DNA of 64,000 nt from an uncultured Chloroflexia bacterium (GTDB taxonomy: Bacteria; Chloroflexota; Limnocylindria; Limnocylindrales; CSP1-4), in contig CAWBGT010000016.1 of the NCBI GenBank assembly GCA_963788375.1, forward strand, positions 94,078-158,077. The letters are read 5' to 3'. Within the stretch, counting starts at the first letter, position 1. Every line of letters starts with the position of its first letter. The notes under the pieces were generated by a model. That model had not been told where the DNA came from. It saw only the letters and a list, made by a program, of their open reading frames with translations, and ran no database searches. Positions 28,320-61,863 of this stretch are shown here, one piece after another. The position numbers and the translations under genes are program-made.

Positions 28320-28338
28320 ACGAGATTGTGGGCGGGGA

Positions 28339-32162: not shown

Positions 32163-32188
32163 CGCCCGGAGTGTAGCCGTGACGGGCG

Positions 32189-33860
32189 CTATGGCGAGGC
32201 GGGTTCGGCGCAGTCGATCCGGAACACCCGAACGCCCTCCACCGACAGGGCATCGACAGGGTCGCCCGGGACCGGCAGCTGCACCTCCCGGAAGCAGGCT
32301 GCCGCCGGATCGGGCGACGAGTCGAGGATGGCGGGCCAGTCCCCGTGATCCGTGCCCGTCATCACCAGCCACCGGGCACGGAATCGGGCGTCCCGGGCCA
32401 GGTCGAGGACGTCGGCAGGGCCCTCGTCGGGCAGGGCGAGGGCTGGAATCCGGACGGCCTCAGCGAGCCAGATCGGCTGATCGGCGATGACGGGCCCGGC
32501 CTGCAGGAGGGGCGACCCGAGCTCCGCCATCTGGCGAGCAAGCACCGCAAAGGTGCGGGCTTCGTCACGCGACCTGATGGCGGACGGTGGCAGCAGCGCG
32601 ATCGAGAGCATGGCAGAGCTGAGGATGGCGAAGAGCGCTCCCAGCCAGGTGACCGGGCGCGTCCAGCCCATGCGTGCTGCGAGCCACGCAAGCGCGGCCT
32701 CGAGAACCCCCACGGCAGAGACGATGAGGAGCACGTGCACCGGGGCCGCCGCATGGAGGAAGGTGCCCCAGGTCGTTGATACGGGGAAGACCAGGCCCGC
32801 GATCAGGAAGATCAGAACGGTGAGGAGCAGCACCGGCCGCAGCGCCCGGTCCCTGCCCTGCCACGGCAGCGCCAGCAGCCCGATCACCGAGATCGGGAAT
32901 CCGAGCAGGACGAGCACGTCGATCGTGTTGTGCACGATGCCCTCAACGCGCATCCCGGCGAGATTTCCGGGGCCGATCGCGAGGTAGCGCTCCAGGGTCG
33001 GCGGGTCGTTCCAGGCGAAGATGTCGAACCCGGTCAGGGAGAGGGCATTCAATGCCGCCTGGCCGGGCAGCGGTGAGCCGAAGACGACCCAGTCGCGGTA
33101 TGCCCATGGGGCGAACACCAGCAGGCTGACACCCGCGACCACGCCAATCAGCCGGAGCCGGACGCTCCATCGCTGCTCGTGGATGCGCAGGACCAGCCAG
33201 ACCCAGAGCAGGGCCAGCCACACGGCCTCGTTGCGCGTCAGGGCCGCCGCCCCCAGGAGGCCACCGATCGCGAGCAGGCGCGGATCGGTGAGGCGCGCCC
33301 CACGGGGGTCGCGCAGGGCTCGGGCCATGAGCAGGCACGCGCCCAGCGACGAGCACGCCGAACAACGTGGTTGAGTCGGGCTGCACGGAGTGGAGGATCA
33401 AAGGGAGGTACACGGCCGCGGTCAGGCCCGCGCCGATGGCCAGCGTCCGGGCTCGACCGGGGGACAGCCCCCGCTCGGCCGCGAGGTCGGCGGCGAGGCG
33501 CCAGGCGAGGACCGCCAGCAGGGCGCCAAGCACGACCGACACGACCTGGGCAGCGCGGAGGGCGGTCTCAAGCGACACGTCGCTCGCGGCGCCCATGGCC
33601 AGCAGCGGGACCGCAAACAGCAGGCTGGGCAACGGCAGCCAGAGCTCGAAGGCCGCACGAGGCAGATCCAGCGGCGGTGTCGCGTAGCTCCAGATCACGT
33701 CAGTGACCAGCCCGCGGCCCTCGGCGACGTTCCGGGCCACGCCGATGTAGTACGCGGCATCCTGGGCCGGGAACGAGATGGCCGCGGCAGCGACGGCCCT
33801 GACCACGACGGCGACGACGAAGATCGCCAGCGCCGTGAGCCAGGCCTCGCGGCGGCTCAT
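32189..33860 (-). CDS. GT-C fold membrane glycosyltransferase (PMT/ArnT-like), split by an apparent 1-nt frameshift near 33330-33420
   Basis: The N-terminal part (frame of 33968 ORF) and the C-terminal part (frame of 33328 ORF) each match consecutive regions of the same family as its intact neighbours. The N-frame degenerates into Arg-rich nonsense after about 33340. Start at 33860 has an ATGA overlap with the upstream gene. Confidence 0.6.
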
Positions 33861-35497
33861 GAGCGTGCTCCCGGCCGGGCTGCGCCGGCGCATCGGGCGT
33901 CGGTGTCGCCGAGGCAGACCGGGTACACGGCCACGTCCGCGCGCTCGAGAAGGGGCGGCCCGACCCACGCCGGGCGCTCGCCCTGCACGAGGATCTGCGT
34001 GCTGGCCGGCACGTCATCCTTGAGATCGAGGACGAGCCAGCGCACGTCGTAGGCCCGCGCGACGTGCTCCACGGTCTCCAGGGGATCATTGACCAGCACC
34101 ACGCCCGGGCGGCCCGTCCAGTAGCGATAGCCGGACGCGTCCGTGGACATCAGCCGGTCGTCCATCGGAACCCCTGCCGCGGTCAGCGCGGCGGCGACGG
34201 CCTGCATCCGCTCCCGTTTCGCCTCCCAACCACTCCGAACGCCCACGACGCCCGCCACCGAGCAGACGATGCCGAAGACAACGGCGCCGCCGACGACCAG
34301 CCGCGCCGCCCTCGCGACGTCCATCCGGGGACGCCACGTTGCGACCCTGTTGACGATGGCGACCAGCCCCACCAGCGCCAGCACGTACGCATGCGGGAGG
34401 AGTCCAACCGCGGAGTGGATGAACATGCCGCCGGGCACATGGATCGCGAACAGCACGCTGCTCGCCGCGACGAACAGGAAGGCGTAGGCGAACGCGGGCC
34501 CGAAGACCTCGTCGTGTCGCCGTTGCCAGGCACCCACCAGCAGTGGCGGCACCAGGAGGATCGCGCAGGCGAGCACGGAGAAGAGCAACAGCGCGGTCAG
34601 GAACCCTTCCAGGCGCGTCAGCAGGAGGGGACCGATGCCCATCCCCAGGAGGTGGTCCAGCGTCGCGGGCGTGGTGATGCTGTTCCACTCACCGAAGTCC
34701 CGGATGAACATGACCTTGCCCGTGGACGAGGATGGCGAGATCGCTCCGAACACCGCCAGCTGGCGTGCGAGCCACGGCCCCATGACCGCCGCGAACAGGG
34801 CCAGCGAGCCAAAGGCGGCCTTGAGGGGGATGCGCGCGGGACGAGCCGCGCTGCCCCCCGATGGCCAGCGGCTTCGCAATCGATCCCACAGGAACACGGC
34901 CGCGAGCATGGCCACCAGGATCGCCCCGTCCGAGCGCGACAGGGTCGCAAGCCCCGCCAGCAGGCCCGCGACCGCGAACGACCAGGCGCTGCCGCGCAGC
35001 CCCCGGCTTGCGAGGAAGAGCGAGCCCGCGGTGACCATCTCGAACAGCGCGAAGTTGTCAGGCTGGGCCATGAACACAAGGGTCAGGAGCGGGAAGGCCG
35101 CGAGCAACCCGGCACCCACGGCGACGTATCCCGGGGCACGGGCATCCCGTGCGATTGCCCAGGCAAGGGGTGCCGCCAGCGATCCGATCAGCAGGAAGGG
35201 CAGTAGCGACGCCAGCATCGTCGGGCCCAGCAGCCAGATGAACGGGACCTGGACGATTGAGGCCAGCGGCATCCAGTGGGCGTTCGAGGGGACTGGCAGC
35301 ACCGGGCTGGCGGGGATTGCGCCACCGACCTCGGGGAAGATCCAGACGAAGTCCACGTTGAAGCCATGCCCCGCCGCCACCTGCCGGGCGACGTCCACGT
35401 AGTAGGACGAGTCCGGGTAGGCGGGGTCCGGGAACGCGACCGCCGCCGCCACCCTCGCCAGCAAGGCGATCAGGAACAACGTGACGGGAATGCGCAC
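33857..35497 (-). CDS. GT-C fold membrane glycosyltransferase (PMT/ArnT, GT39/83-like)
   Basis: 546 aa with 11-13 TM helices. The N-terminal 'DPAYPDSSYYVDVARQVAAGHGF' loop is typical of the family. Paralogue of 15469..17265. Confidence 0.7.
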   Translation of the reverse strand: MRIPVTLFLIALLARVAAAVAFPDPAYPDSSYYVDVARQVAAGHGFNVDFVWIFPEVGGAIPASPVLPVPSNAHWMPLASIVQVPFIWLLGPTMLASLLPFLLIGSLAAPLAWAIARDARAPGYVAVGAGLLAAFPLLTLVFMAQPDNFALFEMVTAGSLFLASRGLRGSAWSFAVAGLLAGLATLSRSDGAILVAMLAAVFLWDRLRSRWPSGGSAARPARIPLKAAFGSLALFAAVMGPWLARQLAVFGAISPSSSTGKVMFIRDFGEWNSITTPATLDHLLGMGIGPLLLTRLEGFLTALLLFSVLACAILLVPPLLVGAWQRRHDEVFGPAFAYAFLFVAASSVLFAIHVPGGMFIHSAVGLLPHAYVLALVGLVAIVNRVATWRPRMDVARAARLVVGGAVVFGIVCSVAGVVGVRSGWEAKRERMQAVAAALTAAGVPMDDRLMSTDASGYRYWTGRPGVVLVNDPLETVEHVARAYDVRWLVLDLKDDVPASTQILVQGERPAWVGPPLLERADVAVYPVCLGDTDARCAGAARPGARS

Positions 35498-35554: not shown

Positions 35555-37838
35555 GTGGCGCGCGTGATCGACGCTGCGACCGGCCGGGATGATGGCAGGG
35601 CGGCGCCCATCGGGGGCGCACGGCTTGCCCTGTGGGCAATCGTGGCCATGGTCGGGATCGACCTCATCTTCTTCACCGGAACGTCGAACTTCCTGCCGTC
35701 GGCGCAGGCTCGAAATCCTCAACCAGCTGCTGCTGCTCGCGTCGGCGATCGCGTTTGGTGTCGCCGCATGGCGAGGAGCGGTCGACTCGCGGTCGCCCCT
35801 GATCCTGCCCGGGCTCGCGTGGCTCCTGGCAACCGCTGCCGCCACCGCATTCAGCCAGCGTCCCGCGACGAGCGTCGAGGCGCTGGCGTGGGTCCTGCTC
35901 GCCGCCCCCGCCTACCTGGCCGTGCGCTCGGTGCTGTGGTCGGACTGGCTGGGCCCCCGCGTGGACCGGCTGCTGGTTGGCGCGACCCTGTTGCTCGTCG
36001 TGGCGTACCTGCTCCAGGCGCTGCTGCAATGGGTCAGCTGGTGGTCGGTGGCCGGCATCTCCGTTCCGCCCATCCGGCCCGGCGACGTTGGCCTGACGAT
36101 CGGGACGGTCAACGCCATCGCCCTCCACCTGGAGCTGCTGGTGCCCGTAGCCGCATGGCTTGCTTGGCGCCGCCTCGCCAGGCCGCGCCTGGCCGGCACC
36201 ATCGCGGGCCTCGGCCTGTTCGCCCTGATGGTCACAGGGTCACGCGGGGCCTGGCTCGGCGCGCTGGCGGCGGTCGGATGCGTGGCCGTGATTGCCTGGG
36301 CCCGCGCGGGTAGGCCGATGCCGTCGACGAGGGGCCGGAACCGCGGACCGGCGGTGGTCCTGGGCCTGGGGGCCGTGGTCGCGCTCGTGGTGCTCGCCCC
36401 GGTCCTGCTGCCGCGGCTGCTGAGCGGTGATGCGGGCCGCTGGGAGCTGTGGTCCGCGGCGTGGGCGATGTTCACGGGACAGCCGCTGACGGGCACTGGG
36501 CCCGGTACGTTCCCGCTCCTGCGCCCGGGCTCCCCGATCACCGAGCCCAACCTGGCAGTTCTCACGACAAGTCACAACAGCGTGCTCCAGGTCCTGGTCG
36601 ATGGCGGGGTGCTCGCGATGGCTGCAGCGGTCTGGATCCTCGTCACCGTGGCGCGCCTGGCCGGGCGAGCAATCCGCACCGGGACGGGGCGGTCGCCTGA
36701 GCTGGCGCTGGTGGTGGTGGGCAGCCTCGTCGCGATGCTGGTCCACTCGGTCGTGGACACGCAGTTCCACGTGCCCGCGGTGGTCCTCCTCGTGTTCCTG
36801 CTCGTCGCACGCATCGATCCGCCGGCGGCGGTCGCACCCGTCCGGCCAGCGGCCTCGCGGATCCTGGCAGGTGCCGTGGTCGTCGCGACCGGTGCGCTGC
36901 TGCTCGTGCCCATCGATGCGGCGATGGTCCGCGCCCAACTCGGCAACGATGCCCTCGATCGCGGTGACGCCCAGGCCGCCCTTGAGGACTTCCGGTGGGC
37001 CGCGGACCTTCACGAGCTGGCTCCATACCGCCTCGGGGAAGGCATCGCGGCGTCCCGGCTCGGGGACGACGCCACCGCGTCGGATGCCTTCACCAGCGCT
37101 CAATCCCTGCATGGCCTCACCTTCATCGGGGCGAACCTTGCGACCGTCGCCGGTGACGCCCAGGTGCCGGGGATCCTGGACCGGATCGAGGCTGCCGGAG
37201 CCTATGACGCGACCGCGGCCGTGAACGCCGCGGTGCTCCGGTTTCCGGACGATCCGGCGAAGGCGACCGCAGACCTGGCGGCCGCGATGACCGGTGCCCC
37301 GACCCTGATCTACTCGGAACGCCCACCTACCCTGTTTGATGCCGACACGTGGCTGCAGGCCCAGCGACAGGCCCTGGACGCGATCGGTGCAACGGATCCG
37401 GTGAGCGCAGCGGCGCTGGCACTCCTGGCGGGCCTGGATGACCAGGCCGCACAATACGGGGCTGCCGTCTCGGATGACGTCCTGACGCGAGCCCTGGACA
37501 TGATCGGGGCCTCGATGGGGCCTGCCCAGCCGGACATCGAGAGCGCAAACGCGCTGCTCCGGGAGGCGCCGGCGTCACCGGTGCTGCTCGGACTTCTGTG
37601 GCAGCTTGGGTTCCAGGCCAGATCGCAGGCCCTGATCGACGATGTCGGCCGGCTCGCTGTGCCGCTGCTCTTCGGGCTTCCTATGCCGCCGCTGGAGCTG
37701 GTCCTGGACGGGCGGTCCGATGCGGACTACTCGCTGCGCATTCCCCGCTATCCCATGGCATCCGACTTCCGCAACGGGCCCAAGCGGCCGTATGCCGCTG
37801 GCATGGTCACCATCGAACCCGTCCACCGCCCGAAGTAG
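35555..37838 (+). CDS. O-antigen ligase/Wzy_C-family membrane protein with a roughly 330 aa C-terminal soluble (TPR-like) domain; apparent frameshift near 35706
   Basis: Wzy_C core 'TGSRGAWLG…TTSHNSVLQVLVDGGVLAM'. Before about 35706 the coding signal (hydrophobic helix 'ALWAIVAMVGIDLIFFTGTSNFLPSA', high GC3) lies in a different frame from the one that carries it afterwards. Confidence 0.6.
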
Positions 37839-39076
37839 CGCCGGGTGGTCAGGCGCGGACGGCTGCCTTCAGCCCATCGATGACGCGGTCCACCTGCACG
37901 TCCGTCATGTCCGGCCAGATGGGCAGGCTGATCTCGCCGGCGTAGGCCGTTTCGGCGCCCGGGAACTGGCCCGGGCGGTATCCCAGGTTGCGATACAGCG
38001 GGTGCAGGTGCAGCGGAATGAAGTGGACGCTCGTGGCGATGCCGCGCGGTGGACAGGTCCGCGATCACGCGGGCACGCCGGGAGGCCATCGCCCTCAATG
38101 ACTCGGGGAGGATGGCCACCCCAGGGAGCTGCGCGTCGGCCACCTCGCGGCGGCGCGCTTCCGGCCCGAGCTGCAGCATGAACAGGTGCCAGGCGTGGCC
38201 AGGATCCTCCACGCCCACCGGCAGCCGGACCAGGCCCTCGCGCTCCGCGTCGGCCAGGCCACCGAGGTAGCGCCGTGCGATGGAGGCTCGTGCGTCCCGG
38301 AGCCGGGCCGCCCGCCCCAGCTGGACCAGGCCGATGGCTGCCGCCAGATCCGTGAGGTTGTCCTTGAAGCCCGCGGCCTCGATCTCGTAGTACCAGGAGC
38401 CACCCGAGGAGTAGCGCTTCCAGCCGTCACGGCCGATGCCGTGAAGCCGCATGGAGCGGGCACGCTCGGCGAGTGCCGCATCCGCCGTGACCAGCATCCC
38501 GCCTTCACCGGTGGTGATCGTCTTGGTGGCATAGAAGCTGTACGCCCCCGCTTTCCCGACGGTGCCGGCGAAGCGACCACCGCAGGTGGCGATGGGCGAG
38601 GGAAAGGCGTGCGCGGCGTCCTCGATGACCGGCAGGTCGCCCGCCACCGCCATCAGGTCTGCCATCAGGGCCGGCAGCCCGGCGATGTGGACGACCTCGA
38701 TGGCCGCGGTCCGCGGCGTGATCGCGGCCCTCACGGCCGCCGGATCCACGTTGGCCGTCAGTGGGTCGACGTCCACCAGAACCGGTCGTGCCCGCACGTA
38801 GATGGCCACCTCTCCCGAGGCGGCGAAGGTGTACGTGGGAACGATCACCTCGTCCCCGTCGGTGACGCCGGTTCCCTCCAGCGCCAGGTGCAGCGCCGCC
38901 GTCGCGCTGTTGACCGCGACGGCATGCGGCGCTCCCGTGGCCGCAGCCACGGCAGACTCGAATGCCGCAGCCCGGGCACCCGTCGTCAGCCACCCGGTGT
39001 CCAGCACCTCGAGCATGGCGTCGCGCTCGGCCGCCCCGATCGACGGCCGATGGAACGGGATGCGCTCGTCGCTCAT
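37748..39076 (-). CDS. DegT/DnrJ/EryC1/StrS-family sugar aminotransferase (PglE/ArnB-like)
   Basis: 'MSDERIPFHRPSIGAAERDAMLEVLDTGWLTTG…' with the PLP lysine region 'SFYATKTITTGEGG'. ATG at 39076. Confidence 0.8.
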   Translation of the reverse strand: MSDERIPFHRPSIGAAERDAMLEVLDTGWLTTGARAAAFESAVAAATGAPHAVAVNSATAALHLALEGTGVTDGDEVIVPTYTFAASGEVAIYVRARPVLVDVDPLTANVDPAAVRAAITPRTAAIEVVHIAGLPALMADLMAVAGDLPVIEDAAHAFPSPIATCGGRFAGTVGKAGAYSFYATKTITTGEGGMLVTADAALAERARSMRLHGIGRDGWKRYSSGGSWYYEIEAAGFKDNLTDLAAAIGLVQLGRAARLRDARASIARRYLGGLADAEREGLVRLPVGVEDPGHAWHLFMLQLGPEARRREVADAQLPGVAILPESLRAMASRRARVIADLSTARHRHERPLHSAAPAPAVSQPGIPPGPVPGRRNGLRRRDQPAHLAGHDGRAGGPRHRWAEGSRPRLTTRRYFGRWTGSMVTMPAAYGRLGPLRKSDAMG

Positions 39077-39122
39077 GCCGGACCTGCGGCGACCGCGGGC
39101 TGCGGGGCCGCCCGCTCGTCGC

Positions 39123-41078
<1,956 letters not shown>

Positions 41079-41262
41079 GGGTTGAGTCTAGGGGCGGGTG
41101 GTGCGCGGGCGCACCCCGTCGATGGTCCTACAAACCGCCGCTGCGACCATCGTCGTGAACGTCGCATTCCTGCCGATGTGGCCCACATTCACAGCGTTCG
41201 GGAACGCATGCGGTCCCCAGGCCAGTACCCTTCGCAACTAATGGAGGCCCGAGCCCCTGGGT

Positions 41263-42507
41263 TCAGGGCTTGTTGGCGACAACGAGGCAGATGGGCGGGA
41301 GGCGATGCCAGAGAACCTGACGCACCGCGAGGATCTGCCCAAGCTCCCGGATTGCCTCGCCGTCGAAGTAGTCGATCGTGCGGTGATCCCAGCCAATTCG
41401 TCGCGCCCTGCGTAGGGTCTCGGCCAACAGGCCGCCGCGACCGTTCTCGATCACCACTAGGGTGCCCCCCGGTGTGAGGACATCACGGACTGCGCGCAGG
41501 TAGGCTCCGCGATCCGGCACGACGACGAGCACGCTCTTGGAGAACACGACGTCGAACCGATCGCCCGCCACGGACGCAAGGCGGCCGTCGTCGAGTCTGA
41601 ACTCAACACGATCGGCAACGCCGTGCGACCAGGCCTCCGCTGTTGCGCCTGCCTCGAACCCGCCCTCGATGTCGATGCCGACGACTGAGGCCCCTCGCAT
41701 CGCGAATAGACTAGCCATCCGACCACTCCGCGAGCCGATCTCCAGCACGCGCTTTCCGTCGAGGTCACCGATCGAAACCAGAGCTTGGCCGACGAGACGC
41801 TCCCACGGCCCACCGCCCCACTCCACGAAGTAGGCGAGGGACTCCGGACTGGCGGGTGGAGCGGCCTCGTTTGCTTGGCCGGGATGGCTGGTGATCACGG
41901 TCTCCCTCAGCAAGGCAAGGTCGCCCCGCGTCGACCTGTGCGTCAGGTACTTCGCCTCGATCTCCAACTTCTGGGGCAGGACTGTCGCGCGGTAGGCGCG
42001 GTCCAGGTCGGCCGCCGTTGTGGCACGACGGCCGTCCGCACGGGCGACCTCGAGTGCCGCATCCGCCAGGATCGACTCCTCGTTCCGGAAGGCAACAGAC
42101 GCCGCGCCCGTGATACCGGGTTTCGCCCCGAAGACCAGGGCGTGGAGCGGATCCGCCGGGTCCACGTACCGCGGATCCTCCGGGCGCGGACCGACGAGGA
42201 GCATGTCGCCACGCACGACGTTCCAGAGTTGGGGCAGCTCGTCCATCTTCGTCCGGCGCAGCAGGCGGCCCAGCGGCGTCACCCGCGGATCCCCGCCGGC
42301 CGTGATCCCGGGTCCTGCCGTAGCGGCACCGGCACGCATCGTTCTCAGCTTGTAGAGCGTGAAGGTCCCGCCCGGCCGCACCCGCACCGCCCGATGGAGC
42401 GCGGGCCCGGGCGACGTCAGCCGGACGGCCAGCCCCAGCGCGAGGATCAGGGGCCCCAGCACCAGGAGCGCCGCGGCAGCTAGGAGCCGCTGGATCACGC
42501 CGGGCAT
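41263..42507 (-). CDS. Fusion protein: PglC-like small phosphoglycosyl transferase (Bac_transf) plus class I SAM-dependent methyltransferase domain
   Basis: N-terminus 'LVLGPLILALGLAVRLTSPGP…KLRTMR…MDELPQLWNVVRGDMLLVGPRPE' is the monotopic PGT core. The C-terminus has the SAM motif 'VLEIGSRSGRMASLFAMRGASVVGIDIE'. ATG at 42507. Confidence 0.7.
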   Translation of the reverse strand: MPGVIQRLLAAAALLVLGPLILALGLAVRLTSPGPALHRAVRVRPGGTFTLYKLRTMRAGAATAGPGITAGGDPRVTPLGRLLRRTKMDELPQLWNVVRGDMLLVGPRPEDPRYVDPADPLHALVFGAKPGITGAASVAFRNEESILADAALEVARADGRRATTAADLDRAYRATVLPQKLEIEAKYLTHRSTRGDLALLRETVITSHPGQANEAAPPASPESLAYFVEWGGGPWERLVGQALVSIGDLDGKRVLEIGSRSGRMASLFAMRGASVVGIDIEGGFEAGATAEAWSHGVADRVEFRLDDGRLASVAGDRFDVVFSKSVLVVVPDRGAYLRAVRDVLTPGGTLVVIENGRGGLLAETLRRARRIGWDHRTIDYFDGEAIRELGQILAVRQVLWHRLPPICLVVANKP

Positions 42508-45114: not shown

Positions 45115-45363
45115 TGATCGAGCGCGCGCAGAGTCGGTCCCATCCTATCTGGCGCCATCTGTGGAGCGCTCCGCTTGTCGGTGGTTGACAATGTGAAGGT
45201 GCTGTGCGGTTCGATGGCCTGGAGAGACGTCCTCGATCTTGACGACGGCACCCTCGAGGGGAATGCCGCGGTGTTCGGCGTACTTCTTGAGCAGACCCAG
45301 TGTTCCGCTGGTGGCGAACCGGCTACCCGTGCCTTCTGGGGTCAACTAGCCGCTCACTACGCC

Positions 45364-46824
45364 TGGATGAACCATCCTGGTGTCCACGCAAGCGGCGAAC
45401 TTGAAGCAGCGATCTCGGGTGCGCGGGTGGTCGCGGGCGAGCCCCCTGGCAGGGTCGGCCGCGGGCCCGAGCACGTTGTACACGTCCTGACGCAGGCCCT
45501 TCAGGTGGGTGGACATACCCGTCAGGTCTGGCGGTGGATTGGCGCCGATGCTGGCCGCCGGTCGTCGGTCGTACTAACGGGACAAGGGTGGCACCCGATC
45601 CCGGAAGCCTTGTCGCACGCAGCCACGTCTAGCGGAGGCCGCATCCTCGACCTGGCGTCCCGGCCCGGGCTCCTCCAGGACAGGGCCACACGATTGCGCA
45701 AGGCCCTCGCCACAGCCAATACGGTCGTGATCCACGCTCACCCGTTCGACGTCGTGCCCCTCCTCTCCCTCGAAGGCTGGCAGACACGACCACCTGTCCT
45801 CACCGTCAATCACGCTGATCACAGCTTCTGGATCGGCTTGCGGTCCACGGACGTCGTCGTAAGTTTCCGGGAGCACGGAGCCAAGTTAGCTGCAGATCGT
45901 CGGGGAGTTGCCCCCGAGCGATCAAAGGTCGTTCCCCTGCCCGTGGACCCTCCTCAAGGCCGATCCCCAAGCACCTGGCGAGCCGACAACGGCTTGCCGG
46001 CCGACGCATTCGTGACGCTGAGTATCGCCTCTCAGTACAAATACCGTCCCTGGGGAGATCTGGACTTCATCGACGCGATCGGTTCTTTGGTTGCGCGGAT
46101 GCCGAACCTGCACGTGCTGGTGGTCGGTCCTGAACCGACTGGACGGTGGGCGCAGAGTGAGCTGGCGACGGGCGGGCGCTTTCGAGCCCTTGGGATCAGG
46201 CGCGATGTTGCTGACCTGCTGGGTGCGGCGGATGTGTATCTGGACTCGTTTCCATTGAGTTCGCTGACCTCGATGCTCGAGGCCGGTAATCGTGGGATCC
46301 CGGTGATGAAGTTGAGATCGGGACCTGGCCTCGAGATCCTCAGCGGCGACTCGCCCGGCCTGGATGAGACAGTCATCACGTTCTCGACAACGAACGAGAT
46401 GGAGCAAGTACTGCGGGCATTGGCCGAGGATGCCGCGAGCAGGACCAGCCTCGGCGCTCGTACGGCGGATGCAATCCACCGCGTATCGTCCGGTGCGGGC
46501 TGGATGCATGCCGTGGAGGAGGCATATGCGGCCGCCGCGCACATGCGCGCGACCAACGCACCACCCCTAGTGGCTCTGGCTGAGCCAAACTACGGGTCCC
46601 TCGATCGCCGTCTCGCGGGCCTCCAGCTCCAAGGGGTGGGCCTCCGCGATGCAGTTCGAAGCCACCTTCGCTACCTCCCCGTCCAGGACCGCTCGCGACT
46701 CTTGTTCGCACTGCGACGCGACCACCCCCTGTCCAGCGCCGCCGCGGTCGTGCCAGATTGGGCTCGCAGCAGGCTTCGCGGCTTTGCCGAAACAGGTACC
46801 GCGGAGCGATTGGCGGGGCGCTGA
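45364..46824 (+). CDS. Putative GT-B (GT4-like) glycosyltransferase of atypical composition; start uncertain
   Basis: The C-terminal 'LLGAADVYLDSFPLSSLTSMLEAGNRGIPVM' resembles the GT4 EX7E region. Lower GC and frequent rare codons (tta, cta, aca, agt, aaa) compared with its neighbours. The ORF is open upstream to 45175. Confidence 0.45.
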   Translation, partial: WMNHPGVHASGELEAAISGARVVAGEPPGRVGRGPEHVVHVLTQALQVGGHTRQVWRWIGADAGRRSSVVLTGQGWHPIPEALSHAATSSGGRILDLASRPGLLQDRATRLRKALATANTVVIHAHPFDVVPLLSLEGWQTRPPVLTVNHADHSFWIGLRSTDVVVSFREHGAKLAADRRGVAPERSKVVPLPVDPPQGRSPSTWRADNGLPADAFVTLSIASQYKYRPWGDLDFIDAIGSLVARMPNLHVLVVGPEPTGRWAQSELATGGRFRALGIRRDVADLLGAADVYLDSFPLSSLTSMLEAGNRGIPVMKLRSGPGLEILSGDSPGLDETVITFSTTNEMEQVLRALAEDAASRTSLGARTADAIHRVSSGAGWMHAVEEAYAAAAHMRATNAPPLVALAEPNYGSLDRRLAGLQLQGVGLRDAVRSHLRYLPVQDRSRLLFALRRDHPLSSAAAVVPDWARSRLRGFAETGTAERLAGR

Positions 46825-46843: not shown

Positions 46844-48195
46844 TCAGGCCCTACGGCGCTTCTTGAGGCGTGCCGAGTAGAGTTCGGCGTCATCGCCGAC
46901 CAGCACCTTGGTCGGCAGCTTGAACGCCGCGAGTTGGCCAGCGCACGCGGTCCGGATGCGGACCTTCAGATTGGCGGCAGTCTCCGGCTTGTCGGTGACC
47001 ACCCGTGCGACCACCGCGTGGCCCGAGCAGCGCGTGCGGCTCCCCGAACACGGCGACATCGCGGATGTTGTCGAGGTCCAGGATCGCCTGCTCGACTTCA
47101 GCCGGGTAGACCTTCTGGCCTGCCACGTTGATGAGGTCGCTGTCTCGCCCGAGGATCCGCAGCCAGTCCCCATCCACCTCGACCAGGTCCTGAGTGTTGA
47201 ACCATCCATCGTCGTCGAAGCCGCTTGGCGCGTTGAGGTAGCCCACCATCGCATAGTCGGATCTGATCCACGAGATCCCGTCAACGACCTTCGTCTGGAA
47301 GCCATCACCGCCGATCCGCACCCAGAGGGAGCCGTCGTCGCGGGACTTCGACCGCAGCACGCCGAGCTCCGACAGCCCGTACGTCTGCTGGAGCACGACC
47401 CCCGGAAATGCCGCGCGGACGCGATCGAGGGTCTGCTGGGGCATAACCTCCGTGCCGTAGGTGATCTTCCGCAGCGATCCCAGTTCATGCTGCTCAAGCA
47501 CGTCGGAGCGGATGAGCAGGTTCAGGAACGAGGGCGTGGTGGGCAGGACCTCGACGCGGTGCTGCTCGATCGCCCGGCAGATCGTCACGACGGATCGATC
47601 GCCCACGGTGACCACCGTTCCGTGGCCGCCCAGGATCGAGAAGATCGTGTTGATGCCGCCGAAGTGGTCCAGCATGAGGAAGGCGATGGCGACGATCGGC
47701 CGGCCAGGTCGCCGGTACTTCTCCAGGACGACAGCCATGTCGTGGAGAATTGCTTTCGGGTCGCCCGGAGCTGCCGGACGAGAACAGGATCAGGCCGGGC
47801 GAGCCAGCCTCGATCTGGTCGGTGAGCAGCGGGTGTTCAGGGGTGGTCGCCGTGCGAGCGATGGTTCGTTCCGCGCCACGGCAATCGATGATCCAGCCAG
47901 CCTCCGACAGGTCCAGGATCGTGCTCATCTCCACGACGGCCTCGGCGGTCACCGGGACGATGGTGCAACTGTTCCGCAGGAGCGCCAGGAGCAGTGCGAA
48001 GACCTCCGGCGAGTAGTCGCCCAGCACGACCGCGATGTCACCACTCTGCACGCCCGCGGCGTTCAGCCACCGGCCCGCGGCGTCCGTCTCGTGCAGCAGA
48101 TCGCCATAGCTAACTGACCGCCCCCGATCGACGAAGGCAATCGAGCCGGGCGCCGTCGCGAAGCGCTCCAATAGGAGCCCCAGGATCTCGATCAC
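46844..48195 (-). CDS. AMP-dependent synthetase/ligase (ANL superfamily; candidate acyl-ACP/CoA ligase) with two apparent +1 frameshifts in G-runs
   Basis: Three ORF pieces in different frames cover consecutive ANL regions. Removing one g from 'tccgggcgaccc' restores the AMP-binding motif SSGSSGDPKAI. Removing one g from 'ctcgggccacgcgg' joins …FGEPHALLG to HAVVARVVTDKPE…LAAFKLPTKVL. Confidence 0.65.
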
Positions 48196-49107
48196 GTGAC
48201 GACGAACGCCATGACTTCGGGCACCGGCACGCCCGGCCGTCGCGGGATCGCCGCCCAGGCCGATGCGTACTGGTGGATCTCGAACCCCGCCGTGTTCAGG
48301 TGGTCGATGATGTCGGCGGCCGTCCGATACAGGTAGATGTGGTCCGCGTTGGCGGCGTTGAGGGCCGTTGCCAGGAACGCTCGACCGCCTGGACGAAGCA
48401 TGGCCCGGAGGCCGCGGAGGAACCCGACCGGATCCTCAAGGTGCTCCAGGACCTCCACGCACACCAGGTGGTCGACGGGCGCCGGCAGGTGCTCCATAAC
48501 GTCCTGCACCCGGACCACGAAACGGTCCCCAGACCCGAATGACGCGACGTGCCGCTCCGCGAACCGCGCGGACGAGGCGCTGATGTCGAAGGCCGTGCCC
48601 GTCAGGTCCGGCGCCCCAGCTAGCAGGCGGCGCGAGTAGATCCCGGTCCCCACGCCCACGTCGTAGAAGGTCCCGGGTCCCGCGCGTCGCGCCTCCTCCA
48701 CGAAGGCGTGGTCGAAGAAGCGGAGCTGTCGATAGTGGTGCGGCCAGAGGAAGTGAGAGAGAAGCAGGCCGGGCAGGTAGCACGCGGTCATGTACTCGTC
48801 GTTCGCGTAGACCTCGGCGGCCACCTCCGCGTAGGTTCGGTGGCGGTACTCGCGAGTCTGCTCGAACGTCGCCTGGAGCCGGAGTGCCTCGAGGGCGAAC
48901 CTCGAGTAGCCATCAACGGCGCGGGCGATGTCTGCAGGATCCGGCAGGAGGCGGACGAATCGTGTCCTCCGTGTCCGCGGCCCAGCCCTCACCCAGGAGC
49001 GCCCGCGTGCGCGGCACGGCGTCCCGGAAGACGGGCGACGCCGATCTGAACTGCGCCTCAAGGCGGTCCAGCGCGGGCGTTGGGACAGGTTCTCCTGGGT
49101 CAGCCAC
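48192..49107 (-). CDS. Class I SAM-dependent methyltransferase (apparent frameshift around 48960-49060)
   Basis: GTG start overlaps the ACP stop. The N-terminal 60 aa is in one frame, and the remainder ('…YDVGVGTGIYSRRLL…VLEHLEDPVGFLRGLRAMLRPGGRAFL') in another. Confidence 0.55.
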
Positions 49108-49339
49108 CGGCGAGCTGCTCCTCGACGACCGCCAGGATGATCGGGTAGGAGGTCATCACCGCGACGTCGTCGTCCGGCACCGTGATGCCGAAGGCCTGCT
49201 CCAACGCGATCACCAGGTTCATGTGCCGCACGGAGTCCCACGTGTCGACTGTGTCCGTGCTCGTGTCCGGGCCGACGTCGGCGGGGTCAAGCTCGAGCAT
49301 CGCCGCGACGACTTCTCGCAGCTTGTCCTCAGTAGGCAC
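49100..49339 (-). CDS. Acyl carrier protein
   Basis: 79 aa with a 'DTWDSVRHMNLVIALEQAFGI' phosphopantetheine-attachment Ser motif. Confidence 0.8.
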   Translation of the reverse strand: MPTEDKLREVVAAMLELDPADVGPDTSTDTVDTWDSVRHMNLVIALEQAFGITVPDDDVAVMTSYPIILAVVEEQLAGG

Positions 49340-51146
49340 GGATCACCTCGACGAAGGGGGGTGGTGTAGCATCTGGCGATTCCGGGAGATCCAGTTCGTA
49401 GTCGCGTCGGCCGTCCGGATGGGCGCGGACCAGCGTGAACCCCGCGCGCTCCCAGAACTCCCGGACCTGCCCGTTCTTGGCCGTGGGCAGATAGGTGGCC
49501 CCCAGGCGGCGGCATCCGCGCGCGCGCAGGTCATCGAACACCACCGGCCAGCAGGCGTCCTCCACGCCTCGGCCCAGGATCCGGCAGCTGAGCAGAAAGG
49601 AGTCCACCTTCGCAGTTTCGCCCTCGAAGGTCACGATCGCCACTCCGGTCAGGCCGGAATCACCGAACCTGTCTTGGACGTTGACCGAGAGCACGTCCGC
49701 CAAACCGGAGCCCATCAGATCCAGGATCTCGGCCTCGGTCCGCCGGCGCGTTGTGAGGTTGAACTGGTTGGATTTCTGCGTGAGCTCGGCAATCCTGGGC
49801 GCGGACGCGCGGTCGTTGAGCCTGATCGTGACGCGGATCCCAAGGGAGGCAAGGTAGGCCTCCTGGGTAGCGAAGTTGACCCGGTCCGCCAGCGCCAGCT
49901 CCCGGATCCTGTACTGCGCGGTCTTGTCGGTGTCCGCGATAGTCGGACCCCCGGCCTGGAACAGATCCGCGATGTCGTCCAGCATCCGCGGGTAGGTTGA
50001 GAGGTCCGCTGGTACCTGAAACACGCGAACCGCCGGCAGTCGGGTGCGGACGGCGTCGCACTCGATGGCGGCGTCATCCACGAACACGAGCGAATCCAGC
50101 CCGATCCCAAGGGCCTCGGCGATCTCCCGAAGGTTGTCCGCCTTGGCGCCCCAGTTGATCCGCCGGATGGTGATGTCTTCGTCGCGCAGGACCATGTGGG
50201 GGTGCCGGGTGAAGACCTCGGCAACGTCCGCCTCATTGTTCCTGGAGCAGAGGCCCAAGAGCACGCCGTTCCGCCGCAAGGCGAGAAGCCGGTGCTGCGC
50301 CTCCCAGTAGATGCCCGCAGGGTTGCCCTGCGGTGCCAGGGTGATGCCGCCGATCAGGTCCTCGCCGATGGTCCCGCCCCACAGAGTCCCATCGCAGTCC
50401 AGGATCAGCGCTTTGAGGAAGTAGGAGTCGAACCCACGGCTCCGCAGGAAGACCTCCTGGGCAAGCGCGTCGGCGAACGTCGGCGAGAACGGGGCTGCGA
50501 AGCGCCTGTAGGACCGAGGATCGTGGCTGCGTTCCCAACCGATGCGTGCGCAGAGGGCGGAGGTATCGATGAGCTCGACATTGGGGTAGGCCTTGGCGGC
50601 CCCCAGCAGCACCTCGTTGAACGCGGCGATGGCCGCCGCGGAGCTGCCCGCGTCCGGGCCGGTGGCGGGGCTGCCCATCGCATGGAGCGTGCCGACGAGG
50701 ATGCGCGGAACCGATGCTGCGGTTGCGAGCGCGAGGTCAAGCTCGGCGCGGTAGCCGTTCACGCGGTCGAGCAAGAGATCCGGCTCCAGGTGCCCCGAGC
50801 GGGCCTCGAATGCCGGCATGAGTGCGTCGAACCAGTCGAGGATGACGATCGCATCCACTCCGCCCGCGGCAAGCTCCCGGACACCCCCGACGCGGTCCGC
50901 GATGGGTCCGAGCGACACCGTCGCTTGCAGATCACCGAGGACGGCGTGCTTCCGCAGGAAGGGCGCCAGAAGGTCCAGGGTGACGTTGCCGGAGAGCCCG
51001 ATGCGGACGGTGCGCGCATCCAGCACCATGCCCTCCACCCGGGTAACGAGCCGAGTGACGGCCGCCAGGTCATCGCCGGCGCGAGCAAGGGCGTCACGCG
51101 CCTCCTTGGGCCCCGGCTCGCCGGTCACCGGGATCGCGTCCTTCAC
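49329..51146 (-). CDS. FkbH-like protein (HAD-IIIC phosphatase-like acyl/glyceryl-ACP loader with C-terminal GNAT-like domain)
   Basis: 'LILDCDGTLWGG' (DxDGTLW, diagnostic of the FkbH/HAD-IIIC family), then 'VFVDD' and a GNAT-like C-terminus. GTG start whose GTGA overlaps the upstream gene. Confidence 0.7.
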   Translation of the reverse strand: MKDAIPVTGEPGPKEARDALARAGDDLAAVTRLVTRVEGMVLDARTVRIGLSGNVTLDLLAPFLRKHAVLGDLQATVSLGPIADRVGGVRELAAGGVDAIVILDWFDALMPAFEARSGHLEPDLLLDRVNGYRAELDLALATAASVPRILVGTLHAMGSPATGPDAGSSAAAIAAFNEVLLGAAKAYPNVELIDTSALCARIGWERSHDPRSYRRFAAPFSPTFADALAQEVFLRSRGFDSYFLKALILDCDGTLWGGTIGEDLIGGITLAPQGNPAGIYWEAQHRLLALRRNGVLLGLCSRNNEADVAEVFTRHPHMVLRDEDITIRRINWGAKADNLREIAEALGIGLDSLVFVDDAAIECDAVRTRLPAVRVFQVPADLSTYPRMLDDIADLFQAGGPTIADTDKTAQYRIRELALADRVNFATQEAYLASLGIRVTIRLNDRASAPRIAELTQKSNQFNLTTRRRTEAEILDLMGSGLADVLSVNVQDRFGDSGLTGVAIVTFEGETAKVDSFLLSCRILGRGVEDACWPVVFDDLRARGCRRLGATYLPTAKNGQVREFWERAGFTLVRAHPDGRRDYELDLPESPDATPPPFVEVIRAY

Positions 51147-52339
51147 AGCGTAGTCAGCCCGCCGTTGATTCGGATCGTCTCGCCGGTGATGTAATCCGCG
51201 CCCGGTGAGACGAGGAAGGCGACGGCATCCGCCACGTCGGACGGTTCGGCGAGGCGACGAAGCGGCGCCTGGCGCGCCAGGACGAGGCGCGCCTTCTCGG
51301 GAATGTCCGCCACCATCGCCGTCTCGGTCATCGCCGGCGACACGCAGTTGACGTTGATTCCGATCGGGCCGAGCTCCACTGCCAGTGACCGGGCCAGCGT
51401 CGCCAGCGCAGCCTTGCCGATAGCGTACGCAGTCCACTTTGGCGTTGGCGCACCGTCGAGGACGCCGGACGTGACGAATACGATGCGGCCGAACCCCTGG
51501 TCCCGCATCGCAGGCAGCGCCGCCTGCGCCAGGAACAGCCCACCGCGGGCGCCGGTGTCAAGGTGACCCTGGACCTGCGCCCAGCTGAGCTGCCCCAAGG
51601 CGGACGGATCGATGGGCGGCGATGCCGCGTGCACGACCGTGCCCACCGCGCCGAACCGGCGGATCGCGGCCGCAATCAGCTCCTCCACGGACGCCTGGTC
51701 CGCAAGGTCCACGCGAACGGCTTGGGCCTCCGTACCGTCCGCGACGAGCGAGGCGGCGAGCGCTTCCGCGCGGTCCGGACCCGAGTGGTATCCGGCGACG
51801 ATGGCAAACCCGTCACGAGCCAGCGACCGGCAGATGGCCTGGCCGATGCCGCCCGCAGCTCCGGCCACGACCGCCACCTTCGGCCGCTCGGCCAAGGGCT
51901 CCGCCGGCGTCGGTGGTTGGAGGACCCTGACCGTCCCCTTGCCCGTGAGCACGGCCTGGTTCCGCTGGTTGTCGATACGGGTGTTCAGCTCCAGGAGTCG
52001 GTCGCGCTCGTGTTTGGCGGTGACCGAGCAGGTCACCGTCAGCGTGTCGCCCAGGCGCACGGGAAGGAGGAAGTCGAATGCCTGCGAGACCCAGACCGCT
52101 CCGCCCCCCGGCAGCCTTGTGCCGATCAAGGTCGAGAGGAACGACGCCCCGAGCATGCCGTGGACGACGATGTCCTTGAACGGCGTCGTCTCCGCGAAGG
52201 CACGATCAACGTGGAGCGGGTTGTCGTCGCCGGTGAGGTCGACGAAGCGGCGAACGTCGTCGCCCGTGATCACGCGGGTGAGGCTTGCGGTGTCACCGAC
52301 CGCAAGGTCGTCGAACGACCGGAAGCTCACATTACTCAT
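51143..52339 (-). CDS. Bifunctional MaoC-like (hot-dog) dehydratase plus SDR (FabG-like) reductase
   Basis: N-terminal 'DDNPLHVDRAFAE…' hot-dog motif. C-terminal 'VAVVAGAAGGIGQAI' Rossmann and YxxxK-like catalytic region. ATGA overlap with the KAS III gene. Confidence 0.75.
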   Translation of the reverse strand: MSNVSFRSFDDLAVGDTASLTRVITGDDVRRFVDLTGDDNPLHVDRAFAETTPFKDIVVHGMLGASFLSTLIGTRLPGGGAVWVSQAFDFLLPVRLGDTLTVTCSVTAKHERDRLLELNTRIDNQRNQAVLTGKGTVRVLQPPTPAEPLAERPKVAVVAGAAGGIGQAICRSLARDGFAIVAGYHSGPDRAEALAASLVADGTEAQAVRVDLADQASVEELIAAAIRRFGAVGTVVHAASPPIDPSALGQLSWAQVQGHLDTGARGGLFLAQAALPAMRDQGFGRIVFVTSGVLDGAPTPKWTAYAIGKAALATLARSLAVELGPIGINVNCVSPAMTETAMVADIPEKARLVLARQAPLRRLAEPSDVADAVAFLVSPGADYITGETIRINGGLTTL

Positions 52340-53367
52340 TCTTCTCCCGTCCCCCACATCCAGCACGACGCGCCGAACCCGAAGCCAGCGCCTACTCCTG
52401 CGAATACGACGCGATCCCCGTCCGCAAGCCGGCCGGCCGTCACCGCGTCGGCGAGGGCAATCGGGATCGACGCGGCCCCCGTGTTTCCGATTGTTTCCAC
52501 GTTGGTGAACGTCCGCTCGGCGGGTACGTGCATCTTGGCCATGGTGTAGTTGATGATCTGCAGGTTGGCCTGGTGAAAGACAAACAGGTCTACGTCCTCC
52601 ACCGACCAGCCCGCGTCCGCGCAAGCGTCGCGGATCGTCCTTGGCAGGTGCGTGACGGCCTGCTTCCAGGTCGCCAGCCCGTTCATCTCCATCAGGCCCA
52701 AGTTCGGGGTTGCGTCACCCAAGGCGCCACGTCCGCCATCGCGCGTGGCGAATGGGTGTCGTGATCCGCCACCCCGCAGCCGGACTGACTCGAGGTTGGA
52801 CGTGTCCGCATGAAATGCTGCCCCCATGACGCCACGTCCTGCGGGTACGCGACTCAGGACCGCCGCGCCTGCTCCGTCACTGAAGAAGATCGCAGTCTCG
52901 ACATCCGCATAGTCAACGAACGGGCTCAGGATCTCCACACCAACGACGAGCGCGGACTCCAGGCGAGGATCCCGGTGCATCCGGTCCGAGACAGCTGTCA
53001 GGGCACTCACGAACCCGCTGCAATTGGCCTGGAGGTCGTAGAACTGGCCACCTTTGACGCCCAAGTCCCTGTGCAGACGAGCGGCCACCGGCGGGAAGAG
53101 GTAGTCGCCGGAGAATGTGGAGACCACGATCATTCCAAGTTGGCTCGCATCAACCCCAGCCGCCTCCAGAGCCTGACTGGCCGCATCGAGGCTCAGGCTG
53201 GATGCCGTCTGCCCCTCGTCGATGACGAATCGTTGCCGGATGCCGGTCTTCTCCACGATCCACGCCGGAGTTGTTCCCGCGAGCGTCGTCGCACACAGCT
53301 CCTCGTTCGTGTGCCTCCGGGTGCCCAGCGCCCGGCCCGTCCCCACGATCCCGATACCGCCGCTCAT
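52336..53367 (-). CDS. 3-oxoacyl-ACP synthase III (FabH/KAS III-like; may be an acyl- or O/N-acyltransferase)
   Basis: 343 aa thiolase fold with active-site Cys in 'LQANCSGFV' and His/Asn regions conserved. Confidence 0.75.
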   Translation of the reverse strand: MSGGIGIVGTGRALGTRRHTNEELCATTLAGTTPAWIVEKTGIRQRFVIDEGQTASSLSLDAASQALEAAGVDASQLGMIVVSTFSGDYLFPPVAARLHRDLGVKGGQFYDLQANCSGFVSALTAVSDRMHRDPRLESALVVGVEILSPFVDYADVETAIFFSDGAGAAVLSRVPAGRGVMGAAFHADTSNLESVRLRGGGSRHPFATRDGGRGALGDATPNLGLMEMNGLATWKQAVTHLPRTIRDACADAGWSVEDVDLFVFHQANLQIINYTMAKMHVPAERTFTNVETIGNTGAASIPIALADAVTAGRLADGDRVVFAGVGAGFGFGASCWMWGTGEE

Positions 53368-55627: not shown

Positions 55628-55676
55628 CGTGGCCGAATCATAGCCGCGGCGGACCCCGCTTCCCACGGCCACCCCC

Positions 55677-59930: not shown

Positions 59931-59940
59931 ACTGCGGCGG

Positions 59941-60744: not shown

Positions 60745-60758
60745 GGCGCGCGGGTTCG

Positions 60759-61826: not shown

Positions 61827-61863
61827 GCCACCCTTGGTTCGGTTCCCGGCGATACTCGGCGCG

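Follow-up and report, generated by a model that had tools for sequence, protein, structure and literature searches.

A Wzy_C-family protein with a TPR-like tail at the edge of a variable glycan island in Limnocylindria: a candidate O-oligosaccharyltransferase near Tad pilus genes

The window analyzed here is a stretch of 64,000 nucleotides (approximately 70% G+C) from the metagenome-assembled genome (MAG) of an uncultured soil member of the Limnocylindria (Chloroflexota). At positions 35555-42507 it contains four genes, encoding a Wzy_C-family membrane protein with a TPR-like tail (the Wzy_C-TPR protein), a DegT aminotransferase, a PglF-like dehydratase and a PglC-like phosphoglycosyl transferase (PGT) fused to a methyltransferase. 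Our tentative conclusion is that the Wzy_C-TPR protein acts as a terminal transferase delivering a finished glycan en bloc, and that it is most likely a protein O-oligosaccharyltransferase (O-OTase).

Genes were called from third-position GC content (GC3) and domain searches against the Pfam and NCBIfam libraries, and the loci of relatives were labelled L001-L032. An earlier note on this DNA, made from its letters alone, had described the same four genes; their content and architecture were borne out, with domain matches well beyond chance (Pfam). These genes form only the left end of a glycan island of approximately 23 kb (35.5-58.4 kb), which also encodes a Wzx flippase. The four genes are as follows.

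35555..37838, + strand: Wzy_C-family membrane protein (WaaL/PglL fold) with an extra transmembrane (TM) helix, a predicted extracytoplasmic TPR domain and a 54-aa C-terminal tail (Pfam)
37855..39079, - strand: DegT/PglE-like sugar 4-aminotransferase (Pfam DegT_DnrJ_EryC1, E 4e-89)
39123..41078, - strand: membrane PglF/WbpM-like UDP-N-acetylhexosamine (UDP-HexNAc) 4,6-dehydratase, 651 aa (CoA_binding_3 + Polysacc_synt_2, E 3.5e-100)
41263..42507, - strand: small PglC-like polyprenyl-phosphate PGT with a C-terminal S-adenosylmethionine-dependent methyltransferase (Bac_transf E 2.6e-40; Methyltransf_11/25)

Domain organization and fold of the Wzy_C-TPR protein

After repair of a +1 frame break, the Wzy_C-TPR protein is approximately 761 aa long; residue numbers given below correspond to positions 35709-37835 of the window. 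Pfam matched it to Wzy_C with an E-value of 6e-16 (59 bits for a gathering cut-off of 31.7) and the motif TTSHNSVLQ is present, in agreement with the family and the SHNSVLQ motif that the earlier note had recognized. Wzy_C (PF04932) was matched by all members of the family (33/33). The AlphaFold2 model, computed with 33 sequences, reached a pLDDT of 85 and a pTM of 0.83. A WaaL-like TM fold was found, WaaL being the best structural match, and the model displayed an all-helical repeat at residues ~420-655. TPR models of Pfam matched up to 9 of the 33 family members.

The three TM helices that follow the loop are as in WaaL, and an extra TM helix (residues ~382-405) comes after them. This extra helix would return the chain to the outside, and the arginine-rich loops at residues ~318-329 and ~369-381 fit the cytoplasmic side. 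From the helix count and the positive-inside rule, the tail of approximately 330 aa carrying the repeat is predicted to lie outside the cell. The helical repeat, the TPR matches and this predicted topology all point to the extracytoplasmic TPR-like C-terminus that had been proposed for this gene.

Homologues of the protein carry the names Candidatus Limnocylindrales or Chloroflexota. About 56 database clusters showed 40-61% identity to the repaired protein across 97% of its length; therefore the whole architecture is conserved, including the tail. The tail could have been a mobile acceptor-binding module shared with GT-C enzymes. This idea was dropped because the tail is confined to the Wzy_C-TPR family. 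Indeed, an exhaustive search of 1.84 billion proteins with a tail profile returned 69 representatives, all of this architecture or fragments of it and none with another catalytic domain, and a word-indexed search with the tail alone retrieved only fragments of the same family.

Among the closer homologues of the window protein (subfamily A), the last 54 codons (37677-37838) are the most conserved part, with 68% identity; the TM domain reaches 53% and the TPR domain 44%. This 54-aa tail follows the pattern …DGRxDADYSxRLPRWPxAS..GRNGPKRPY..G..TIEPVxRPK; the more distant subfamily B, described below, has a different conserved ending.

Catalytic residues and kinship with PglL and WaaL

R179, R244 and H289 of the window protein aligned with R224, R298 and H349 of PglL, equivalent to R215, R288 and H338 of Escherichia coli WaaL. 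The two arginines were invariant and the histidine nearly invariant in the alignment of 33 sequences (A1), and all three were invariant in that of the eight subfamily-A sequences (A3). Seven positions (Q178, N180, G316, G318, H400, E404 and P406) are conserved in PglL and not in WaaL (PMC3643930). N135, G262, G264 and H346 of the window protein aligned with N180, G316, G318 and H400, and D350 with E404. Thus, four of the seven PglL-specific positions are identical, E404 is replaced by D, and Q178 and P406 are unmatched, in a comparison that covered PglL and WaaL.

A search of the PDB sequences with the single window protein gave no match, profiles being required. With the family profile, 9rmk_A (610 aa, annotated 'Oligosaccharyltransferase') was found at E 3.9e-6 with 28.7 bits and WaaL (7tpg_B) with 25.7 bits, a lead of just 3 bits that does not discriminate between them. 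When the profile of the TM domain alone was used, 9rmk_A was the sole match at E<=1. This entry appears to be Neisseria meningitidis PglL, as the residue numbers obtained in our alignment (R224, R298, H349, H400) coincide with those published (PMC3643930). No assignment to WaaL, Wzy, TfpO or PglL came from NCBIfam, whose only hits for the family were IctB (see below) and, for one homologue (P0020), TfpM at 29 bits, both far under their cut-offs. Altogether, the sequence evidence seems to lean, weakly, towards the OTase side.

Candidate genes for a bacillosamine-type priming sugar

The dehydratase and aminotransferase genes, convergent on the Wzy_C-TPR gene, belong to sugar-modifying families. 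In the DegT gene, the Pfam match ends at profile position 288 of 360. The PglF-like dehydratase has four to five N-terminal TM helices, and an exact-sequence look-up of this protein gave no match. In NCBIfam the dehydratase was nearest to PseB/FnlA and the aminotransferase to ArnB/PseC, all under the equivalog cut-offs; therefore they are considered as generic members of these families, to which no single product can be assigned.

The PglC-like PGT has a single N-terminal hydrophobic helix. Its fusion to a methyltransferase could have been a frameshift artefact. This was rejected, because the same fusion forms a single open reading frame (ORF) in an independent assembly (L010, 16083-17453). 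In L001-L003, the space of the methyltransferase domain of the PGT is filled by a gene on the opposite strand, encoding a membrane protein of 276-288 aa.

The trio expected of a di-N-acetylbacillosamine (diNAcBac) pathway had been identified beforehand, and PglF-like, PglE-like and PglC-like enzymes are all present. What the trio lacks is an adjacent PglD-type acetyltransferase: the nearest candidate is a GNAT protein (55040-55756), 12.5 kb further into the island, and relatives carry methyl-, formyl- or GNAT-type modifiers instead of PglD. Therefore the sugar is read more broadly, as a bacillosamine-type 4-amino-4,6-dideoxy-HexNAc that would be further modified. In the Neisseria pgl system, the glycan donor starts with a bacillosamine-type sugar, made and loaded by a dehydratase, an aminotransferase and a small PGT, to which the trio of the window can be likened.

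A variable island between conserved flanks

The comparison with relatives involves the following genes outside the island.

27929-28870, - strand: three Flp pilin genes (ORFs; processing motif GQG/LAEY, cleavage between G and L)
28993-29157, - strand: minor Flp-like gene (ORF)
32189..35497, - strand: conserved left flank, GT-C_A (32189-33860) and GT-C_B (33857-35497), GT39/ArnT-like (Pfam PMT_2)
58676..63120, + strand: conserved right flank, PIG-V/PMT_2-like GT-C, GT2, GT87 and a polytopic GT-C-like protein (61729-63120) (Pfam, TM counts)

Approximately 20 relatives keep a block composed of tad genes, flp genes, a two-component system and two GT-C genes, with the Wzy_C-TPR gene divergent from it. 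In L001-L017, one strand reads tadZ-cpaB-flp (three to four copies)-minor flp-HisKA_3-LuxR regulator-histidine kinase-GT-C_A-GT-C_B, and the Wzy_C-TPR gene is divergent; convergent on the latter are DegT-PglF-(small membrane protein or methyltransferase domain)-PGT-methyltransferase-GT2. The islands of L001 and L003 are minimal, with the PGT, sugar-modification genes, one GT2, a flippase and the Wzy_C-TPR gene. These minimal islands follow the same logic as the Neisseria pgl system.

Other relatives keep the flanks and change what lies between them. L020 and L022 have the flp-two-component-GT-C block at the same level of identity as L001 (79% for the LuxR regulator, 57% for GT-C_B), with a different cassette comprising GT4 enzymes, a Wzx-pyruvyl-transferase fusion and a WbaP-type PGT. 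Their Wzy_C-TPR proteins, 30-32% identical to that of the window, define subfamily B, whose members are 47-81% identical among themselves. In L010, DegT and PglF are divergent (48%), and one ORF is putatively formyltransferase-like, by reading of its translation. L032 combines a subfamily-B-like gene with GT87, GT2 and Wzx. L031 keeps the tad/flp block without any island, and its GT-C_B directly faces GT87-GT2-GT87 and a homologue of the protein encoded at 61729-63120. This locus (8988-13353), in which GT-C_B is 66% identical, is among the closest relatives, and the whole 23-kb island is missing from it. From the comparison of L010, L020, L022, L031 and L032, it follows that the segment at 35.5-58.4 kb is a variable island of glycan genes, bordered on either side by a conserved block rich in GT-C genes. 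Invariably, the Wzy_C-TPR gene stands at the island edge nearest to the flp side.

Further homologues occur in other settings. Neither a PGT nor Wzx is encoded within 10 kb of the homologues in L018 and L019. The L019 gene belongs to subfamily B and is surrounded by housekeeping genes, a GT87-GT2-epimerase-like-LPG_synthase_TM group lying upstream; L018 is similar, but with no flp. An orphan flp (L019, 12400-12549; mature peptide LAEYALILALIAIAAVLALLFLSGTIQSILSTIGHDL) lies ~0.3 kb downstream of the subfamily-B Wzy_C-TPR gene on the same strand, with no other tad genes within 10 kb. At 22-28% identity, the distant homologues of L029 and L030 are accompanied by GT87/GT-C genes; in L029 the neighbourhood also comprises a complete pgl-like set with a GNAT. 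In addition, near the most distant homologue (P0060), L029 (2928-5114) encodes a Peptidase_S8 protein of 728 aa that bears cadherin-like/Big_9 repeats and might be a surface glycoprotein in that lineage.

This organization bears on a first alternative, in which the Wzy_C-TPR protein would be a Wzy-type polymerase making a capsule or exopolysaccharide; the TPR tail would then serve as a built-in scaffold or chain-length device, and the proximity to the pilus genes would be merely positional. A PGT, glycosyltransferases and Wzx accompanying a single Wzy_C protein correspond to the standard Wzx/Wzy layout, and no other polymerase candidate was recognized in the island of the window or in L020. 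The identity of the Wzy_C-TPR protein also tracks the cassette type (32% with L020 and 52% with L001, for equal flank identity), as for a repeat-unit-specific enzyme, and the island is absent in L031, where the pili are kept. Against a polymerase stand the lack in the window of a Wzz-type polysaccharide co-polymerase (PCP), of a tyrosine kinase and of an LCP attachment enzyme, and the minimal islands, which encode one glycosyltransferase beyond the PGT. Moreover, homologues standing alone without PGT or Wzx, as in L018 and L019, are unusual for polymerases, the literature search found no polymerase bearing a TPR tail, and, among solved structures, those nearest to the family belong to a ligase and an OTase. 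Neither a tyrosine kinase module nor Wzz/PCP was seen in the examined flanks of relatives either. We thus consider a polymerase unlikely: a transferase is preferred on account of the solved relatives, the stand-alone genes of L018 and L019, the minimal islands with one glycosyltransferase and the missing co-polymerase.

A second alternative concerns the acceptor. The Wzy_C-TPR protein might ligate the variable glycan flipped by Wzx to a conserved acceptor that the flanking GT-C enzymes assemble, either a membrane glycolipid or a cell-wall glycopolymer. This would be an LPS-like (lipopolysaccharide-like) logic, with a conserved core and a variable chain resembling O-antigen, in a cell without an outer membrane. 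The pneumococcal lipoteichoic-acid ligase TacL would be a comparable enzyme, and a trio of dehydratase, aminotransferase and small PGT also primes pneumococcal teichoic acid, with the sugar AATGal, which counts in favour of such a ligase. So does the WaaL structural match. The two flanking blocks hold five GT-C enzymes and a GT2 likely making polyprenyl-phosphate sugar, and they are directly adjacent in L031, as expected of conserved 'core' machinery; GT87 or other GT-C genes are found beside even the most distant homologues. Finally, the gene sits at the island edge by a conserved block, as waaL does in core loci. On the other hand, the TM-domain profile found 9rmk_A, read as PglL, and not WaaL among the PDB sequences, and the window yielded no gene for a lipid anchor or LCP. 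In addition, the cited TPR precedents accompany protein-modifying transferases: a review (PMC2943079) attributes a C-terminal TPR motif to WsfB and to PglL and describes WsaA as a separate TPR partner for WsaB, and a periplasmic C-terminal TPR domain is described in the literature for the pilin glycosyltransferase TfpW. A non-protein ligase is therefore judged somewhat unlikely. A protein acceptor is preferred over a lipid or polymer because the TPR domain is predicted to face outward and has precedents, and also in view of the proposed bacillosamine-type priming and the links to flp.

WaaL function in the strict sense was rejected, as the 64-kb window contains no LPS or outer-membrane gene. 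The ORFs scanned in the window included no secretin, LCP, Wzz/PCP or LPS gene, in line with the earlier remark that nothing else there hints at an outer membrane or LPS. Chloroflexota are reported to lack the BAM and LPS pathways and are regarded as monoderm (PMC13319060).

Pilus genes and candidate acceptors

The presence of Flp pilin genes near the locus was confirmed: three of them lie 6.7 kb from the Wzy_C-TPR gene, and a fourth, Flp-like gene was also detected. The two-component system and the two GT-C genes are located in between. The mature Flp peptides are 37 aa long, with a 13-residue S/T-rich tail after the hydrophobic helix, …QVSTILSTVG(S/N/T)S(V/I); their C-terminal peptides end …QVSTILNQVGTSI, and a serine at position -2 is conserved in most copies. 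On the orthologues of these genes, the Flp_Fap matches of Pfam were weak or faint. Flp1 of Aggregatibacter actinomycetemcomitans is reported in the literature to be glycosylated, and 21 of 31 pglL genes adjoin pilin genes (Schulz et al. 2013, PMC3643930).

The Flp pilins are candidate acceptors only, and we regard it as unlikely that they are the substrate. Immediate adjacency of flp is found in L019 only; flp is 6.7 kb away in the window, in an arrangement kept by about 20 loci, and adjacency is absent in L018, L029, L030 and L031. The use of flp synteny as proof of function was rejected, since L031 lacks the island and the Wzy_C-TPR protein co-varies with the cassette. A bolder version would be a lineage-specific O-OTase class whose TPR domain captures the 13-residue S/T-rich Flp tail, the island being a pilus glycosylation island that gives strain-specific Tad-pilus glycans in an abundant, uncultured soil lineage lacking an outer membrane; this too has a low probability in our estimation.

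The two conserved GT-C enzymes are tied more tightly to the pilus genes than the Wzy_C-TPR gene. In L001 (3722-9821), the genes from GT-C_B to the minor flp overlap by 1-4 bp, and the same overlaps were found in the window (33857/33860, 31074/31077, 29154/29157). Therefore both GT-C genes are operonic with the two-component system and the pilin-like gene, and this operon (28993-35497) runs on into the flp and tad genes. If the pilins are glycosylated at all, the two GT-C enzymes are equally good candidates, by analogy with TfpW. GT-C_B is a backbone gene, with 1934 homologues and more than 120 clusters at 60-66% identity, named as GT39/ArnT family. In the window, 28993-35497 (- strand) comprises GT-C_B, GT-C_A, a histidine kinase, a LuxR-type regulator, a HisKA_3 protein without ATPase domain and the minor Flp-like gene.

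The tad locus (21469-27654) encodes CpaB/RcpC, TadZ with an N-terminal receiver domain, CpaF, TadB, TadC and a DUF192 protein. Neither a secretin nor a prepilin peptidase was identified for it in the window, and a secretin-free tad locus is consistent with a cell without an outer membrane. The literature search found no paper treating glycosylation or pili of Limnocylindria.

Proposed pathway and its standing

From the domain families, the PglF-like dehydratase and the DegT aminotransferase would convert a UDP-HexNAc into a bacillosamine-type 4-amino-4,6-dideoxy-HexNAc. Its amino group would be further modified, by a methyl or acyl group in the window and by a formyl or acetyl group in relatives. 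The PglC-like transferase would load this sugar onto polyprenyl phosphate, GT2 and GT4 enzymes would lengthen the glycan, and Wzx would flip the lipid-linked product across the membrane. The Wzy_C-TPR protein, with its Arg/Arg/His set facing outward, would then take the completed glycan off its lipid pyrophosphate and pass it en bloc to an acceptor located outside the membrane. This acceptor would most likely be Ser/Thr of a protein, held by the TPR domain; one candidate is the exposed S/T-rich tail of 13 residues in the Flp pilins. Gene content, fold, conserved residues, predicted topology and synteny were established directly, and the nature of the sugar, the en bloc transfer and the acceptor are inferred from them.

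Several observations weigh against this proposal. PglL_A (PF15864), the model built to tell PglL from WaaL (PMC3643930), was matched at E<=1 by none of the 33 family members, the window protein included, and Wzy_C_2 by none of them either. The best curated NCBIfam match was the uncharacterized IctB (TIGR00947), with 74 bits for a cut-off of 366, and the advantage of 9rmk_A over WaaL is the narrow one given above. The island is large and resembles a Wzx-dependent polysaccharide locus without another recognizable polymerase. The identity of the Wzy_C-TPR protein follows the cassette and not the flp block, L031 has kept the tad/flp block without the island, and the distant homologues of L029 and L030 have no flp nearby. 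The acceptor is deduced, none having been observed. Lastly, the Wzy_C-TPR and DegT genes are frame-broken in the present assembly.

The ideas put forward in the earlier note were thus sustained in part. Kinship with PglL agrees with the retention of the PglL/WaaL catalytic residues and of four to five of the seven PglL-specific ones, and conflicts with the unmatched PglL_A. The profile check that it had suggested, PglL against WaaL, came out in the same divided way, 9rmk_A being slightly ahead and PglL_A failing. As for O-linked protein glycosylation, the outward TPR domain, the catalytic residues, the conserved position by tad/flp and the flp of L019 speak for it, and PglL_A, the co-variation with the cassette and L031 against it.

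Other genes of the island and a possible sugar decoration

The remainder of the island contains the following genes.

42495-43181, - strand: methyltransferase (Pfam; limits by tblastn with L001 proteins)
43178-44146 and 44143-45114, - strand: two GT2 glycosyltransferases (Pfam; limits by tblastn with L001 proteins)
45175..46824, + strand: GT4-like protein (Glyco_trans_1_4, E 1.6e-4, under the Pfam cut-off; weak matches only)
46890..55756, - strand: acyl/glyceryl cassette (Pfam)
55677-57134, - strand: Wzx-type flippase (Polysacc_synt_3, E 2e-16; WzxE-like in NCBIfam)
57095-58381, - strand: second DegT aminotransferase, right end of the island (Pfam, E 7e-110)

The genes at 42495-45114 are packed tightly with the PGT, forming one operon that runs towards DegT. 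The acyl/glyceryl cassette encodes an AMP-ligase, a methyltransferase, an acyl carrier protein, a 702-aa FkbH/HAD-like protein, a MaoC-SDR fusion, a KAS III, an MBL-fold protein, an SDR and a GNAT. The FkbH-like assignment of the 702-aa protein (49329-51437) is putative and comes from our own reading of its sequence. This cassette, which is missing from relatives with smaller islands, hints that the amino sugar may carry an unusual acyl group, N- or O-linked.

Several GT-C enzymes had been noted around the region, and the window indeed encodes six GT-C-like proteins. The sixth (15469-17265, weak PMT_2 match) is close to an LPG_synthase_TM membrane protein (13387-14592), and a similar LPG_synthase_TM gene stands beside GT2/GT87, upstream of the Wzy_C-TPR gene of L019.

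Frame breaks and assembly quality

The Wzy_C-TPR gene contains a +1 frame break at cgaAAtc (~35707-35713), with one extra A; homologues read …SPQSRILNQ… through the junction. The start given previously, GTG 35555, is that of the N-terminus, but it lies in a different frame from the remainder of the gene (35589-37838). In DegT, the break is near 38018-38043, and the last ~60 codons fall in another frame. GT-C_A (~33342-33379) and the AMP-ligase (~47494-47738) are also split. There are thus four single-base frame breaks in ~10 genes between 32 and 48 kb (~16 kb), and none was noticed among ~25 genes of the first 32 kb.

These breaks could be real, the island decaying and the module being inactive in this genome, a possibility that overlaps with the other explanations. 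The concentration of the four breaks, compared with none in the first 32 kb, is in its favour. However, the relatives, nanopore-derived MAGs (contig names, MFD isolates), are broken elsewhere in these genes (L001 and L002 in DegT, L032 in Wzy_C), which points to consensus errors. Setting the single-base shifts aside, the coding sequence is conserved throughout, with high GC3 on either side of each break. Decay thus appears very unlikely. Because relatives show different breaks in the same genes, the breaks are probably consensus errors at strain-variable loci, although they do cluster within the island.

Significance

All parts of this system belong to kinds already known, namely a lipid-linked glycan pathway that depends on Wzx, priming of the bacillosamine type and a transferase combining the WaaL/PglL fold with TPR. 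The novelty lies in a subfamily restricted to this lineage, with an extra TM helix, a large TPR domain and a conserved tail, in an uncultured monoderm phylum, together with a layout of conserved flanks and a variable island adjoining Tad pilus genes.

If the Wzy_C-TPR protein is an O-OTase, en bloc protein O-glycosylation, studied mainly in Proteobacteria, Bacteroidota and a few Firmicutes, would extend to the Chloroflexota, a phylum that is largely uncultured and has a poorly understood envelope. Such an enzyme would also be a compact OTase carrying its own acceptor-binding domain, of potential use in glycoengineering. Should Flp be the acceptor, the enzyme behind Tad-pilin glycosylation would be identified. 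If the protein instead ligates the glycan to a conserved glycolipid or glycopolymer, a monoderm would be shown to use an LPS-like design of 'core plus variable chain'. Either way, the layout of conserved flanks and variable island provides a practical strain-typing marker for Limnocylindria surface glycans in metagenomes.

Comparison with known systems

PglL (PglO), the general O-OTase of N. meningitidis, has the Wzy_C domain in common with the window protein. The Arg/Arg/His set, N180, G316, G318 and H400 of PglL are matched; E404 corresponds to D, and Q178 and P406 have no match. In contrast with PglL, the window protein has no PglL_A match and only ~29 bits of profile similarity. It differs further by its extra TM helix, its much larger TPR domain and its lineage-specific 54-aa tail. 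The host is a presumed monoderm, and the gene occupies the border of a variable island, whereas that of PglL lies apart from the glycan locus.

The S-layer O-OTases WsfB of Paenibacillus alvei and WsaB/WsaA of Geobacillus stearothermophilus combine Wzy_C with a TPR motif or partner, like the window protein. They also share with it a strain-variable glycan cluster containing an initiating PGT and a monoderm host, a likeness drawn from their description (PMC2943079). In contrast, no S-layer protein gene is found in the window, where no S-layer or SLH domain was seen, and export relies on an ABC transporter in G. stearothermophilus and on Wzx in the window.

WaaL of Cupriavidus metallidurans (PDB 7TPG/7TPJ) uses the lipid A-core of LPS as acceptor, while the window has no LPS genes. 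The solved chain of ~400 residues aligns with the TM domain only, to which the window protein adds the TM helix and the TPR tail.

In Pseudomonas aeruginosa, TfpW (a GT-C enzyme) and TfpO/PilO (Wzy_C) are encoded beside the pilin, and the window has a Wzy_C-TPR gene and two GT-C genes near flp. The fold of TfpW is GT-C, whereas that of the window protein is of the WaaL type. TfpW and TfpO act on type IVa pilins of ~150 aa, compared with 37 aa for the Flp peptides of the window, and here flp is 6.7 kb away, with the two-component system in between.

Finally, IctB (TIGR00947) of cyanobacteria is also a Wzy_C protein, and its match covers profile positions 64-419 of 425. At 74 bits for a cut-off of 366, the window protein is not a member of this family, and the match ends before the TPR tail.

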